Shown here piece after piece: positions 22,058 through 28,207 of a stretch of DNA of 64,000 nt. How positions within the stretch are numbered: position 1 is the stretch's first letter; each line of letters begins with the position of its first letter. Made by a program: the position numbers and the translations under genes. The stretch is from an uncultured bacterium (GTDB taxonomy: Bacteria > Myxococcota_A > UBA796 > CAJQPC01). The stretch spans positions 26,705-90,704 of the forward strand of contig CAJQPC010000113.1 of the NCBI GenBank assembly GCA_905480105.1. Reading direction: 5' to 3'. Under the pieces are notes generated by a model that was not told where the DNA came from, did not search any database, and saw only the letters and a program-made list of their open reading frames with translations.

Positions 22058-22768
22058 TCAAACAGGCCGTGGGGTGATCTTTTCAGGGTCCAGCAAGCGC
22101 TCAAAGCTGCCTAAGGTGGACAGCATTCGAGATTGGAGGCCGCCTCCAGGGCCACGCTGCAGCATCCAGTACATCGGGCGTTCGCCGACCTGAATCCGAA
22201 CGCAGAAACGTCCAGCCTGTTGCAGTCCATAGCTACGGTCCACACTCAGGGACTCGCCCTGCTCGATGTGGTGTGCAAGCTGTCGTAGCAGTCGCAGGGA
22301 CTCCAGTGTGTCGGAGGCGGCGTCTGCCAGCACCGACACATTGCGTTCGTTGAGAGCCTGCACCAGAAGCCAGACGAAGGTCCATGCCTCTTTGGACTCG
22401 GGCAGCGCCTCAAAGCTTGGCGGCGCCGAGATGGCGCCTTCCACGAAGAGGTGGGCCACTTGGGCATTCTTGGTCAGACCCGCCAACCCGGAGCCCGTAT
22501 CGAGCAGGTGCAGACCGGCCAGGATGTGCTCCTCGCCTGCCTGGTCCACGCGCAGCAGGGGTACGGCAATGGCGGTACGTCCGTCTTGCTCAGCGAGCAC
22601 GACCCCGGCGCCTAAGAACAGGCCCTTGCGGACGGCCTGCTTGTAGAGCGAGCCCGGTGTGTCCTGGTCTGCGGACCAGCCCCGTGGCGTGCACTGAGCT
22701 TGGGCAGCGGCCTCGTCTTTGCCCGAGATGGCCTGAGCGAAAGCATCCGCTCTTCTCTCCGCGCTCAT
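22058..22768 (-). CDS. hypothetical cytoplasmic protein, coupled partner of the DUF4157 giant protein
   Basis: The start ATG overlaps the upstream stop as ATGA (22765-22768). No signal peptide or TM helix. No motif recognised. Confidence 0.5.
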   Translation of the reverse strand: MSAERRADAFAQAISGKDEAAAQAQCTPRGWSADQDTPGSLYKQAVRKGLFLGAGVVLAEQDGRTAIAVPLLRVDQAGEEHILAGLHLLDTGSGLAGLTKNAQVAHLFVEGAISAPPSFEALPESKEAWTFVWLLVQALNERNVSVLADAASDTLESLRLLRQLAHHIEQGESLSVDRSYGLQQAGRFCVRIQVGERPMYWMLQRGPGGGLQSRMLSTLGSFERLLDPEKITPRPV

Positions 22769-25700
22769 TCACCCACCATTCGCTTGAACTCGTCTTTGCG
22801 GTCACCGTCCAGCTCCCCGCGCACATCGTCCTTGTCTGCCACGGCCAAGACCGCGTTCAGGTCACCGGACGCATTGGAGAAGCGCAGGATTTCAATCATG
22901 GCGTCCTGGTCATCGCCGCCGGTCCAGCCGCTCATCAGCTTCTTGAGCATCTCACCGCGCTGGGTGGCGTCGGCCAGCTTGTGGGCGTCGTTGGCCACAG
23001 CCTCGCGCACCTTGTCGTCGCCGGAGAACAGGCCCCAAAAGCTCTCCCACAGGGAGGCACCAAAGCCGGCCATGTCGGAGACGGCGTCGGCGATCCAGTC
23101 GGTCGCGATGCTCGCCAGTTCTCCGCCAACGACCAAGGCAAGCTTGATGCCTTCCAGGGCGTCGATGTTCACCGAGACCTTGGCGCCCAAGCCCACACCC
23201 CAGGTGGCGTTGGCCCCCCAGGTAAAGCTGAGCTTACCCCCGGAGAAGCCGACCTTGGCGCTGATCTGTGCGCCCACGCCCAAGCTGCCCTCGCCGGTGC
23301 CTTCTACCCCTAGAACTGGGATTTCTCCCTCGGGGCCCCAGGTCAGCACCGAGGTGATCAAGCGCTCAACAACCTCGTCGGCTCCCACTTGACGCATCAC
23401 CCAACCGAGTCCTGGGACGGCGCTGGATGCGGTGTCGATGCCTGCCGCGATGGTGTTCTCCATCTTGGAGCTGTAGGCACCCTGGTCCTTTTTGTGCCAG
23501 TTCGCAGCTAAGCCTGCGCCCAGACGAACCTTAGCGCCGGCAAAAGCACCCGCGCTCGCGTCGAGAGTCGCGCCGACCCCACTGCTCTTTTCTGCCTCTG
23601 GGCCCGAGGCTACGGTCTCCGTGCTCCCGTCGGCGCCCGCCTTGGTCTGGGTGTCCATTTCGGAGAGGATTTCGTCGCCATCGATAGTACGGGAACCCTT
23701 CGAACGCTTGATGGAGGCGGTGATGCTGGCCTTGGCCTCGGCACCCACGAAGGCGTCGATGCTCACAAAGAAGGTGCCGGAGAACTCCTCTCCGAGCAGT
23801 GTGTACTGCTCGGTCTGCCACTCCCACTTCTGCTTCCATTCAAAGAGTTGGGCCCGAGCCTCGACCGCGGTCGCCAGCTCCACTCCAGTGGTGTCTACCG
23901 TCAAGCTTGACTTGCCGCCGGCCTCGAAGCCCAGCACGTCGTAGCTACCCGAGCTGGTGCTGCCACCCATGCCATCGGTGTTGCTCCAGGCATTCCCGGC
24001 TACGCTGGTGTCGGCCCAGATGTTGTTGGAGCTCTGCCCGTAGAGTCGCGTTTGTTTGGCTGTTCGGTCCCAAGCGTTGTTGCGCTTGGGTGCGCCGTAA
24101 ACGCCGGCAAGCTGCCGGTCGGTGCGCTCGCGCAGGTCCTCATCGGAGCTGCCTCTCGCGCCCCAGATCACCACCTTGCGTCCGTCAGCTCCGGTGGCCA
24201 CGGCATAGCGGCGACCGTCTTGAGCTGTTTTGAAGTTCTGAATGTGGTCTCGGCCCGAAGTTGGCGTGGCGCTTGTCCCGCTGGAAGCACCGCCCAGGTT
24301 GACCGCGCCTGTTTGAGCGTTGTCCGCTTGGCTGCCCGCACCCAAAGTGTTCTGGCTGTAGGTGTTGAACAGCGCCTGATTCCGGCCCCCGTCGGTGACC
24401 CCGCCCAGTCCGCTCTGGGACATGAGCTCATTGCGCGCGGCTATGAAGGTGACCAGGTTGACAGTGTCGGGCTCTACGGGAGCCCAGGTCCCGCCGGCGC
24501 GTCGGTAGCGCTGGGTGCCGTTGTCCGCAAAGACCATGGAGCGCAGCGCCTGTTTGCTTGCCCCGCTCAGATCGGGCGCAGTGGCGCTGGGGGTGTGGGC
24601 GCTGATTTGAGTCTGTTGAGGGGTACCGTCTTGGGCTGCGGCGTTGCGATTGGCAACGCGCTTGTCTGGGGTGGGGGTTGCCGAAGGGGTCATTTTATTC
24701 GGCGCGCGCATGTGCTTGGGGGTTCCGCCCACGCCCATTTGGCGCAGTCCAACCCCCGGTGCGCCCGGCTTTAGGCCTGAGCCTTGGCTGGTTCCCAAGG
24801 CATCGCCGAGCTGGCGAAGCATCTTGGTGGGTACGGTGTTCTTGAGGGTCTGCAGGGCACGACGGGGGTGGTGCTGGCGGCCCTGTGCCTTGGCTGGCGT
24901 GAGGGTTTCGCCGAAGGTGGCGTCGACCACCTCGAGCAGGCCACCGCTTACAGCGCCGTCTGCAAAAGCACGTGCCTTGCGCTCGTGGTCATCGCCCGGC
25001 TGGGAGACGCCTGGCTTTCCACCGCCCAAGACCGCGTGGTGCAGTTCCTCGGCGATGAGCGTCTTGGCGGCGTTGCCGGACTCGCTGAAGGTGCCGGGGG
25101 CGAAGTAGATGTCGCGGCCTACCGTGACGGCGTTCGCTGCGACCCCCACGGCAAAGTCTGCGGCGGCGCTGTCGGTGTGAATGCGCACTGAGTCGATGCT
25201 GCGACCCAAGATCGGGCGGAAGGCTTCCTTGAGGGAGTTGGGCAGAGACTGTCCGCCGCCGCTCGGACGCTCGCTGGTGGCTTCTCGGCCCATGGCGCCA
25301 GAGGCGTTTCGGTGCAGGGTCTCCCGTGTGGGCCGGGTCATGCGCTTCTCTTTGGTGGAGGCGCGCCCGGGCTCCTTGTTGCGCCCCTTAAAGAAGTGGC
25401 GGTCGATGTAGCCCCACGCGCCCTTTTGGTCGCCGTCCAGGACCTTGACCTTGGTCCAGCGCCGCATGGGCTTTTCTACGCCCAAGTTGGTTCCAGCTGC
25501 TAGCTGACCTGTCCAGTGTTTCTGCAGCTTTTTTGGGGCGTTCTGGAGGGCGGCTCCGTGGGCCTTGACCGCGGCGGTCTCCAGGCCATGCAGGGCAGCG
25601 TCTTCCTGCTCGTTGTCTGCCACGTTGGTCGCGGCTTGGTCTTCGGTTGGGCCGGTCTCTGTTTCGCTATCCGGAGTCTTCTCGGCGCCGGCATCTCCAC

Positions 25701-27452: not shown

Positions 27453-27767
27453 TTAGAAGCAGGCTATTTCTGAGCCGATCTCGTCGTCGCCCTGCACGAA
27501 CTCCACCTGCTGACAACTCTGGGTGGGCTCCTCGCAGACGAAAGGCTCTCCGTCCTGTTCAGTGCAGAGGTCATGGCACTCGCGGTCGCCTACAGGCTCC
27601 TCGCAGACGGTTTTTCCCGCCATTTCCTTGCAGACGTAGACGAAGTGGCAGATTTGGTCGGATCCGCAGTCGCTGTTGTCGCAGCAGGTCCGACCCTCGT
27701 CCTGACACTCGGTGACGGGATCGTAGGGCGCTTGGGCACAAGCAAAAAAGAGAAAGAGTGGAATCAT
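27453..27767 (-). CDS. small Cys-rich lipoprotein (104 aa)
   Basis: Internal start MIPLFLFFAC|AQ. The ATG overlaps the upstream stop as ATGA (27764-27767). Many Cys in CxxxxC-type spacing (CCDNSDCGSDQICHFVYVC). Confidence 0.55.
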   Translation of the reverse strand: MIPLFLFFACAQAPYDPVTECQDEGRTCCDNSDCGSDQICHFVYVCKEMAGKTVCEEPVGDRECHDLCTEQDGEPFVCEEPTQSCQQVEFVQGDDEIGSEIACF

Positions 27768-28207
27768 CGCTTGGGGTCCTCTGGGGTCCAGGTTCCGCTG
27801 GGGCCGTGGTCTGCGACCAGGACCAGCTCGCGGCGGCTGTGTGGGGGCACGCACTGGCCACCGCGCCATTGGAATGGTGGAATCAAACATTTCCAAGCCC
27901 CACCCCGAAAAGGATGCAGCAAGTGGCGCCAGGCGCGGGCATCCTGGCCGATGGTGGTGTGAATGGTGCGGTAGCCTGGCAGGCTTACCTTGATGTGGAA
28001 GCGGCAGCGCCGCCGCTTGATGCGCTGGCTGTCACAGCCGGTGTCTCTGCGGATGTGCGGCAGGGTCACCAGCGTGAACTCCACTGGGGTGGTGCCCACC
28101 TTGCGGCGGTTGATCTGCACCTGGGCTCCAGGCGGTTCGCTCTCGATGCGCACCTTGTGAGGGAAGCATCCCAGGATGCTTGCGGAGAGCAGGAGGGTTG
28201 TCAGCAT
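27764..28207 (-). CDS. PEGA-domain lipoprotein
   Basis: Start MLTTLLLSASILGC (lipobox). KVRIESEPPGAQVQINRRKVGTTPVEF ... VSLPGYRT matches the PEGA pattern. The 305-aa ORF-track call is trimmed because its upstream half is antisense to the gene at 28232. Confidence 0.6.
   Translation of the reverse strand: MLTTLLLSASILGCFPHKVRIESEPPGAQVQINRRKVGTTPVEFTLVTLPHIRRDTGCDSQRIKRRRCRFHIKVSLPGYRTIHTTIGQDARAWRHLLHPFRGGAWKCLIPPFQWRGGQCVPPHSRRELVLVADHGPSGTWTPEDPKR

Follow-up and report, generated by a model that had tools for sequence, protein, structure and literature searches.

What does a giant DUF4157 protein do at a locus where no contractile injection genes are recognised, and which of the genes around it belong to its function? 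The question is raised by a 64,000-nucleotide stretch of contig CAJQPC010000113.1 (the window, by which we mean the whole stretch analysed), which comes from an uncultured bacterium of the Myxococcota_A and encodes on its minus strand a 1526-amino-acid protein (22765..27345; hereafter the giant) and, directly after it, a 236-amino-acid protein (22058..22768; the partner). An earlier reading of the DNA letters (the original prediction) had suggested that these two may be an effector with its cognate partner, with delivery or anchoring through two envelope lipoproteins encoded upstream. The comparisons among homologous sequences described below firmly support a unit of two genes, formed by the giant's C-terminal module and the 236-residue partner. 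The explanation that we favour, and hold to be moderately probable, is that the giant is a DUF4157 (PVC-metallopeptidase) polymorphic effector, that the partner is its cognate immunity protein or chaperone, and that export proceeds by a contractile injection system (CIS) encoded elsewhere or by another route. The domain composition of the giant, the modular organisation of its family and the strict co-occurrence of its tail with the partner are observed directly and carry this explanation.

The giant has no Sec signal. Its polar and charged N-terminus (residues 1-50, minus strand as are all of its parts) contains no hydrophobic signal and is judged to be disordered from its composition only. 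It opens an N-terminal leader of 135 residues (26941..27345), within which residues 51-125 carry the conserved motif HAALSSSLQESFGNNLIQSALAG and contain SLQESFGNNLIQSALAG, with the 'GN' leader motif. The leader is conserved in the related giants P0002-P0008 and at five further genome loci, and similar '..GN..' motifs start many unrelated proteins that bear the C-terminal module described below. By analogy with the N-terminal domains of extracellular contractile injection system (eCIS) cargo (bioRxiv 10.64898/2026.05.27.728243), the leader may serve as a loading or secretion signal.

Two DUF4157 blocks had been proposed for the giant, and both are borne out. The Pfam eCIS_core/DUF4157 model (PF13699) matches over two stretches (E 1.4e-40, 137.8 bits against a cut-off of 22), and a profile of our own places the copies at residues 135-258 and 678-815. 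Copy 1 (Pfam stretch at residues 144-222, 26680..26916) retains the intact HExxHxxQ signature of the 'PVC-metallopeptidase' defined in PMC3482391, in the form HELTHVVQH, which is followed by a glutamate (...VELEAE). Copy 2, referred to here as 'D2 type' (24901..25314), lacks the first histidine and the glutamine of the signature and reads AEELHHAVL; in the relatives P0003, P0004 and P0005 the second copy keeps HExxH. It is preceded by RNASGAMGR and followed by the highly conserved GGGKPGVSQPGDDHERKA. Between the two copies lie an acidic low-complexity stretch (residues ~260-340) and a spacer (residues ~340-660) that, from a reading of its sequence only, appears largely helical. An SH3-like reading of residues ~600-655 receives no support from Pfam. 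Behind copy 2, a low-complexity linker (residues ~830-935) leads into the C-terminal region (residues 934-1526). A phage or defence origin was also considered and rejected, as a PADLOC scan for defence genes yields no matches and PHROGs gives one marginal match only, across the HExxH region.

The giant belongs to a family in which a constant N-terminal chassis is joined to variable C-termini. At least nine public metagenome contigs encode an identical giant, and the sample names of several of them suggest marine surveys; its relatives are Myxococcota metagenome-assembled genome (MAG) proteins of 2000-3200 amino acids. Two giant-bearing contigs, L014 and L024, are filed under Cognaticolwellia sp. 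and Klebsiella pneumoniae MAGs and are probably mis-binned. Homologous giants have the N-terminal ~900 residues in common and differ in their C-termini. When mapped with our own profiles (D, DUF4157; BETA and TAIL, the two parts of the C-terminal module), the giant of the window reads D-D-[BETA-TAIL], P0002 reads D-D-[BETA-TAIL]-D-[BETA-TAIL], and the giants of contigs L010, L011 and L013 read D-D-D-[BETA-TAIL]-D-[BETA-TAIL]. A long unrelated spacer precedes the module in P0004 and P0124 (D-D-spacer-[BETA-TAIL]), another region stands before a lone tail in P0005 (D-D-other region-TAIL), and the D-D chassis is followed by unrelated C-termini in P0003, P0006, P0007, P0008, L018, L019 and L024; P0154 is organised as D-[BETA-TAIL]-D with about 1600 further residues. 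The constant N-terminus with alternative C-termini that characterises polymorphic toxins is therefore present, as P0003, P0006, P0007 and P0008 differ in their C-termini and P0004 and P0124 carry the same module as the giant.

Natural alleles of the giant differ in the number of modules. The 1526-residue allele of the window is 85-88% identical to alleles of 2808-2812 residues (e.g. L013:4854-13277), and the difference of ~1280 residues is in frame, with its junction in the linker after copy 2 (residues ~900-915, window ~24600-24650); it corresponds to the gain or loss of one [DUF4157-BETA-TAIL-DUF4157] block. Across the alleles there are one or two modules, each with a DUF4157 before it, and this arrangement fits the releasing-peptidase role proposed for the domain in PMC3482391. 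A second element, the motif R-N-A-x-G-x-M-x-R, stands ~10 residues before each D2-type DUF4157 (in the giant at residues ~679-689, window ~25280-25310). The same motif is present in P0002, P0120 and P0124, and in P0002 it lies directly between the internal tail and the next DUF4157; we regard it as a candidate processing site. The order of DUF4157, tail and motif is as expected if a releasing peptidase acts on a poly-effector, and we infer from this order that cleavage may take place.

The C-terminal module consists of a beta-rich domain (residues 1112-1395, 23161..24012) and a helical tail domain of ~90 residues (residues 1437-1525, 22771..23037) that is delimited by a 23-sequence profile. 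In an AlphaFold2 model (mean predicted local distance difference test score (pLDDT) 77.8) the beta domain is built from very long amphipathic strands of 14-31 residues, and their strict alternation of hydrophobic and polar residues is kept across 34 homologues. A Foldseek search of the PDB and BFVD with this domain returns no significant match, its resemblances to lipid-binding and barrel proteins being weak and non-significant. The tail has the consensus ...DDKVREAV..AH...GWTGGDDQDAMIEILRFS..GDL...LDG..D... and stands behind at least two kinds of upstream region, the beta domain in the giant and the region without a beta domain in P0005-type proteins.

The module is mobile well beyond the giants. 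An exhaustive search of 1.84 billion representative proteins recovered 96 clusters (50% identity) that bear it, and a metagenome scan with a trimmed alignment gave only 9 loci; a word-indexed search with the module alone found no homologues, probably owing to its low-complexity words. It usually forms the C-terminus of proteins of 400-1000 residues that have polar N-termini and no Sec signal, many of them with '..GN..' or 'PPPFQL/VQRK' leader motifs. Among the 56 module-bearing hits scanned with Pfam, 11 contain DUF4157, one an anthrax-lethal-factor-like peptidase and three a single unrelated domain, and the rest give no match. A C-terminal cassette that moves behind unrelated N-termini, a hallmark of polymorphic toxins, is thus seen here.

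The gene that follows the tail is equally constant. The start of the partner gene overlaps the stop of the giant by ATGA, as read directly from ...GGTGAATGAGCG..., and the protein has no signal peptide and is read as cytoplasmic. Its AlphaFold2 model (mean pLDDT 84.1) contains two repeats, each with three helices and then four or five strands, and Foldseek matches it to the two-domain NTF2-like proteins MonBI/MonBII (E 1e-5, probability 1.0), with further matches to Lsd19, a conjugation NTF2-like protein and ketosteroid isomerase (single domains, target-normalised TM-scores of ~0.5). The partner is accordingly predicted, on the basis of these models, to adopt a tandem NTF2-like fold. Its matches among PDB sequences are at chance level only (E >= 0.28). 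A word-indexed search found 12 homologues, all of one lineage, and a profile built from distant copies extended the family. Counting tail-bearing genes with readable downstream sequence, a partner homologue is the next gene downstream, often overlapping the stop, in all ten independent lineages (the window clade, comprising L010, L011 and L013/L094/L095; L001; L012, which encodes P0004; L007, with the tail-only P0005 type; L093, encoding P0127; L103, encoding P0122; L096; L097; L098-101; and L102), whereas none was found after five independent tail-less giants (L006, L018/L020, L019, L021 and L024). The downstream gene therefore co-varies with the C-terminal domain. The pairing also holds for tail proteins that lack DUF4157, such as P0127 in L093. 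Since tails that lack a beta domain are also followed by the partner, the tail is most likely its target. Together with the recurrence of the module in the 96 clusters, this ten-of-ten against none-of-five distribution lends strong support to the proposal of an effector with a cognate partner.

Two of the distant cassettes are notable for their neighbours. In an unrelated genome (GCA_963169045.1; L093:1-12594), a 666-residue module protein without DUF4157 and its 198-residue partner come directly after a CDC48-like double AAA+ ATPase (695 residues) and a 2974-residue Rhs protein. In L103:3862-13412, an 871-residue protein combining DUF4157 with the module and its 276-residue partner come straight after a complete F1Fo ATP synthase operon, where a toxin cassette would hardly be expected.

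Several observations weigh against the polymorphic-effector explanation, and the first of them concern delivery. No recognised sheath, tube, baseplate, spike or AAA+ family is encoded at positions ~2,000-74,000 in window numbering, that is, over ~40 kb on each side, and no contractile injection genes are recognised within 10 kb of ten related loci in a survey that took in L001, L006, L007, L010, L011, L012, L017-L021, L024 and L103. The scan around the giant combined public gene calls and their precomputed Pfam hits with our own scan of the middle of the window; as several open reading frames (ORFs) in this range are without a Pfam hit, its result is an absence of recognisable families only. 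With that reading, the statement that the 64 kb contain no sheath, tube, baseplate, spike or AAA+ genes agrees with the Pfam-based scan, and the label 'orphan' holds in a local sense, for the surroundings of the giant in the window and of its relatives. The sole exception among the related loci is L093, where a CDC48-like AAA+ ATPase stands next to the cassette; this AAA+ clade is typical of PVC-type systems (PMC3482391).

Within the window, the ORFs without a Pfam hit at an E-value of 0.001 or below include four at 39112-42681 (minus strand, 1189 residues), 43412-44614 (minus, 400 residues), 46524-48251 (minus, 575 residues) and 37743-38861 (plus, 372 residues). A 739-residue protein (11994-14213, minus) shows beta-helix repeats with weaker Chlam_PMP and MopE-like hits and may be a secreted, adhesin-like protein; according to public calls, two genes 5-8 kb from it on the low-coordinate side have faint-to-clear Ig-like (HYDIN/VesB-type) or Chlam_PMP hits.

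The remaining points on this side concern the effector, its partner and the inheritance of the locus. The beta part of the module has no conserved catalytic-type residues, and Foldseek finds for the module no structural match to any known toxin in the PDB and BFVD. For the partner, Pfam gives no hit to a known immunity family and NCBIfam none at all, and two-module relatives with diverged tails carry a single partner gene. The guanine-cytosine (GC) content of the locus is host-like (uniform, 0.59-0.65 across the window), and the giant and its neighbours show comparable identities: relative to L013, identity amounts to 85-87% for the N-terminal region of the giant, 83% for the C-terminal module, 81% for the partner, 85% for the PEGA protein encoded upstream and 83% for a 443-residue protein encoded downstream. 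Judged from these sequences, the locus looks vertically inherited and unlike a hypervariable toxin island. The host-like GC, the even identities and the single partner per two-module allele keep two other readings alive, one in which the partner is a chaperone and one in which the giant has a cellular, non-toxic function.

In the first of these, the cassette is the same and the 236-residue protein would be a chaperone or loading adaptor dedicated to the amphipathic module, which it would hold in solution and pass on to the export machinery without neutralising any toxicity. One partner gene suffices even for two diverged modules, the partner and the module evolve at the same moderate rate, and the partner tracks the tail and not the beta domain; it is moreover cytoplasmic, and a membrane-active effector would normally need an immunity protein in the envelope. 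Chaperone functions have been proposed for DUF4157-associated proteins (PMC11297309), and many PVC-type toxins have no immunity genes (PMC3482391). Set against this, the slot right after the extreme C-terminal domain is the classical position of an immunity gene (PMC3482391). We consider a chaperone role possible and, all told, rather unlikely, and an immunity protein somewhat more likely. The known chaperones of type VI secretion system (T6SS) effectors also have other folds, namely DUF1795, DUF4123 and DUF2169.

The second reading, in which the giant is a conserved and vertically inherited cellular protein with an intracellular or envelope function (programmed lysis, membrane remodelling or lipid handling, for example), DUF4157 would be a maturation protease and the NTF2-like protein would have a regulatory function, draws on the same inheritance pattern and on the surroundings of the locus. 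Gene order is kept in five related contigs, all the way from the gene for a 150-residue secreted protein (see below) to that for an HtrA-like protease, and the genes compared by sequence are about as conserved as the giant. Lipid and envelope genes surround the locus, among them those for an acyltransferase, FabH, a membrane protein and the HtrA-type protease. The giant's lack of a secretion signal, the lack of a recognised secretion system nearby and the weak, non-significant likeness of the beta domain to lipid-binding and barrel proteins point in the same direction. Cytoplasmic contractile systems that mediate cell death occur in Streptomyces. The family behaves otherwise than a housekeeping protein would, however: different C-termini are exchanged behind one constant chassis, the module moves among unrelated N-termini and genomic contexts, and the number of modules varies, all of which is conflict-system behaviour. 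In the literature, DUF4157 is tied overwhelmingly to toxins (PMC3482391, PMC8213781, PMC11297309). We therefore think a purely cellular role improbable.

The locus itself was read at nucleotide level. All six predicted minus-strand ORFs lie at their predicted coordinates, and both ATGA overlaps and the 18-nucleotide and 41-nucleotide gaps that precede the membrane-protein and FabH genes are as the original prediction had them. The two upstream genes encode a PEGA-domain protein of 147 residues (27764..28207, minus strand) and a small Cys-rich protein of 104 residues (27453..27767, minus), and overlap at ...AAGCGATGATTCC...; the two overlapping pairs, PEGA/Cys-rich and giant/partner, are separated by 107 nucleotides, and a ribosome-binding site of the giant's own (AAGGGAG) lies upstream of its ATG. 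Of the translationally coupled four-gene module that had been proposed, the coupling within each pair consequently stands, while a single four-gene unit does not.

On the downstream side, the FabH gene (19635..20666, minus) encodes a beta-ketoacyl-ACP synthase III as anticipated (NCBIfam PRK09352, 344.8 bits against a cut-off of 249, E 4e-103) and is collinear only among close relatives. The polytopic membrane protein of 443 residues (20708..22039, minus) lies outside the cassette and belongs to no recognised family; it had been described as GT-C-like, a label that finds no match in Pfam, in NCBIfam or among PDB sequences. Its gene follows the cassette only in the closest relatives (L001, L010, L011 and L013) and is not next to the cassette at the other related loci examined. 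A search of PDB sequences finds no solved relative of this protein or of the giant.

Upstream, the giant is flanked by three genes for envelope-type proteins. The PEGA protein matches PF08308 with E 5e-9 and 36.3 bits against a cut-off of 20.8, over profile positions 3-30 of 71 only (28/71), a match after which an Arg/Cys-rich stretch can be seen by eye; it has a lipobox-like ILGC at residues 11-14, and a promoter-like site lies before its gene at 28242-28215. Public gene calls omit it and place instead a 253-residue ORF on the opposite strand (27923-28684, plus). That the PEGA gene is the real one is supported by the conservation of its protein, at 85%, 74% and 49% identity in L013, L001 and L006, respectively. 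Only the last ~150 residues of the called ORF, from a GTG at 28232, are conserved in relatives, so that the public call is probably an annotation error, an over-extended version of a fifth conserved gene (28232..28684, plus) that the earlier reading had missed. This gene is divergent from that for PEGA, the start codons being 24 nucleotides apart, and encodes a secreted protein of ~150 residues with a signal peptide ending in ...ATPSAQA|DR; it has no Pfam match, and its profile finds nothing among PDB sequences. The possibility that it is homologous to the NTF2-like partner was dismissed (hhalign probability 0.8%). The Cys-rich protein has a short hydrophobic N-terminus up to Cys10 and 12 further cysteines, features by which it is probably exported and possibly a lipoprotein; no family match was found for it in Pfam, and it is conserved in L001, L010, L011 and L013, with more distant copies in L006/L016. 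A further PEGA domain is found just past the 3' end of the window, at the C-terminus of a Ser/Thr protein kinase (L008:8606-9991), and ~6 kb beyond this kinase lies a 1708-residue protein without a Pfam hit (L008:1-2908).

The three genes could be more than neighbours: the PEGA and Cys-rich lipoproteins, together with the 150-residue protein, might export or anchor the giant as a self-contained delivery system that uses no CIS. All three proteins read as envelope proteins, there is no injection system near the giant, and the trio adjoins the giant in two clades with just ~44% identity between their giants, that of the window together with L001, where the arrangement is the same, and that of L006/L016. 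In the latter clade the trio stays even though the PEGA/Cys-rich pair has the reverse orientation and the wider neighbourhood of L006 differs, and the 150-residue gene immediately precedes the giant on the giant's strand; in L011, synteny ends immediately outside the 150-residue gene. This persistence despite rearrangement hints at selection for linkage. Set against delivery through the lipoproteins, the PEGA/Cys-rich pair of L006 is on the strand opposite to the giant and forms a run with two more genes whose products look exported, and the trio was not found next to L017, L019, L020 or L024, which are more distant chassis giants with a readable upstream flank, nor next to L007 or any other module/partner cassette examined. 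None of its members resembles a known translocon or secretin, and the giant has no signal peptide with which to reach envelope lipoproteins. Synteny of the PEGA, Cys-rich, giant and partner genes holds in the window clade and L001, and in other relatives the PEGA/Cys-rich pair is inverted or absent. Given this patchy distribution and the lack of likeness to a translocon, we treat the trio as envelope neighbours of the giant in two related clades, with at most a putative part in the mechanism, and regard the lipoprotein route of the original prediction as very unlikely.

Is the system, then, of a described kind? The original prediction could not assign the combination to a described system, which overstates its novelty, as there are published DUF4157 polymorphic toxins whose C-termini vary, whose linkers are very long and which contain several toxin units (PMC3482391, PMC8213781). 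Like the giant, the PVC-metallopeptidase (DUF4157) toxins have an N-terminal HExxHxxQ-containing DUF4157, a constant N-terminus with variable C-termini and no Sec signal, and multi-toxin proteins and second DUF4157 copies have been described among them, as in the giant's family (PMC3482391). The giant differs in that no contractile injection genes are recognised nearby, in that its chassis is built on two DUF4157 domains in a fixed pair, an intact copy and a degenerate one of 'D2 type', and in that its C-terminal module is not among the toxin families described in Pfam; the module is, in addition, always accompanied by a partner gene, whereas many PVC-type toxins have none.

A second point of comparison is provided by the eCIS-associated toxins (EATs), such as Cgo1/Cgo2 of AlgoCIS, more than half of which carry DUF4157 where they are predicted in eCIS-positive genomes (PMC11297309). 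Their polar or disordered N-terminus, DUF4157 and variable C-terminus are all found in the giant, with N-terminal disorder judged by composition only, and its size has precedent, since EAT linkers can exceed 1000 residues and cargo of more than 1100 residues is documented (PMC8213781, PMC11297309, bioRxiv 10.64898/2026.05.27.728243). In the literature, DUF4157 counts as a marker of eCIS (PVC-type) toxins; in verified AlgoCIS cargo, loading depends on the N-terminal domain and can do without DUF4157 (same sources). Of the reference EATs, 88% have an eCIS operon no more than ten genes away (PMC11297309), whereas no such operon was recognised within about ten genes of the giant or near its relatives; these putative effectors have 1526-2812 residues and 2-4 DUF4157 copies.

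The DUF4157-annexin proteins of Haliangium ochraceum and the Ntox3 family (PMC3894181, PMC3482391) likewise are myxobacterial, contain DUF4157 and have a mostly-beta C-terminal region. By eye, the motif G-x-x-G-x-D[DE]-x-A-[ILM]-x-x-IL-x-x-S of the giant's tail recalls an annexin repeat; in contrast to the Haliangium proteins the tail has no annexin match and no match of another kind, either in Pfam (annexin model PF00191, no hit at E up to 10) or in a comparison of its 23-sequence profile with PDB sequences, and the annexin identity was rejected. The partner, finally, resembles the Imm-NTF2 proteins, which belong to the NTF2-fold immunity families catalogued for polymorphic toxins (PMC3482391), in being a small, cytoplasmic NTF2-like protein encoded directly downstream of the C-terminal domain, and differs from them in having two NTF2-like domains in tandem and no Pfam family match; its immunity role is putative. 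The class is therefore a known one, that of the DUF4157/PVC-metallopeptidase polymorphic toxins, among which long linkers and multi-toxin proteins occur. New here are the fixed two-DUF4157 chassis with its variable tandem modules, the uncharacterised effector module (without a Foldseek match in the PDB or BFVD) with its invariably linked tandem NTF2-like partner, and the lack of contractile injection genes in the vicinity of the related loci examined, with one exception.

On the polymorphic-effector explanation, the chassis would comprise the polar N-terminus, the 'GN' leader, the intact DUF4157, the helical spacer and the second, degenerate DUF4157, and would carry an exchangeable C-terminal effector module made of the amphipathic, long-stranded beta domain and the ~90-residue helical tail. 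In the producing cell, the cytoplasmic tandem NTF2-like partner would probably bind the tail and keep the effector harmless or export-competent. The giant, presumed toxic, would leave the cell through a CIS encoded elsewhere or by another route; the intact DUF4157 would cleave the chain near the RNAxGxMxR junctions and so release the modules, and the beta domain may then act on membranes.

The locus described here gives a clean two-gene cassette in which to approach the role of DUF4157 and the activities of the domains attached to it. The natural alleles with one or two modules, in which a DUF4157 precedes each module, offer a direct handle on the proposed releasing-peptidase role. The consistent dearth of contractile injection genes near these loci raises the question of whether DUF4157 effectors always need them. 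A bolder version of the effector explanation, which we consider unlikely, is that marine Myxococcota maintain a vertically inherited, CIS-independent family of poly-effectors, in which a two-DUF4157 chassis would cleave itself to free one or two modules, the NTF2-like protein would hold them in check, and the envelope trio would provide a possible export route. If true, this would mean that the long-stranded amphipathic beta domain with its helical tail is an effector fold not described before, that the NTF2-like protein represents a new family of immunity proteins or chaperones, and that export may follow a new route in which the envelope trio takes part.

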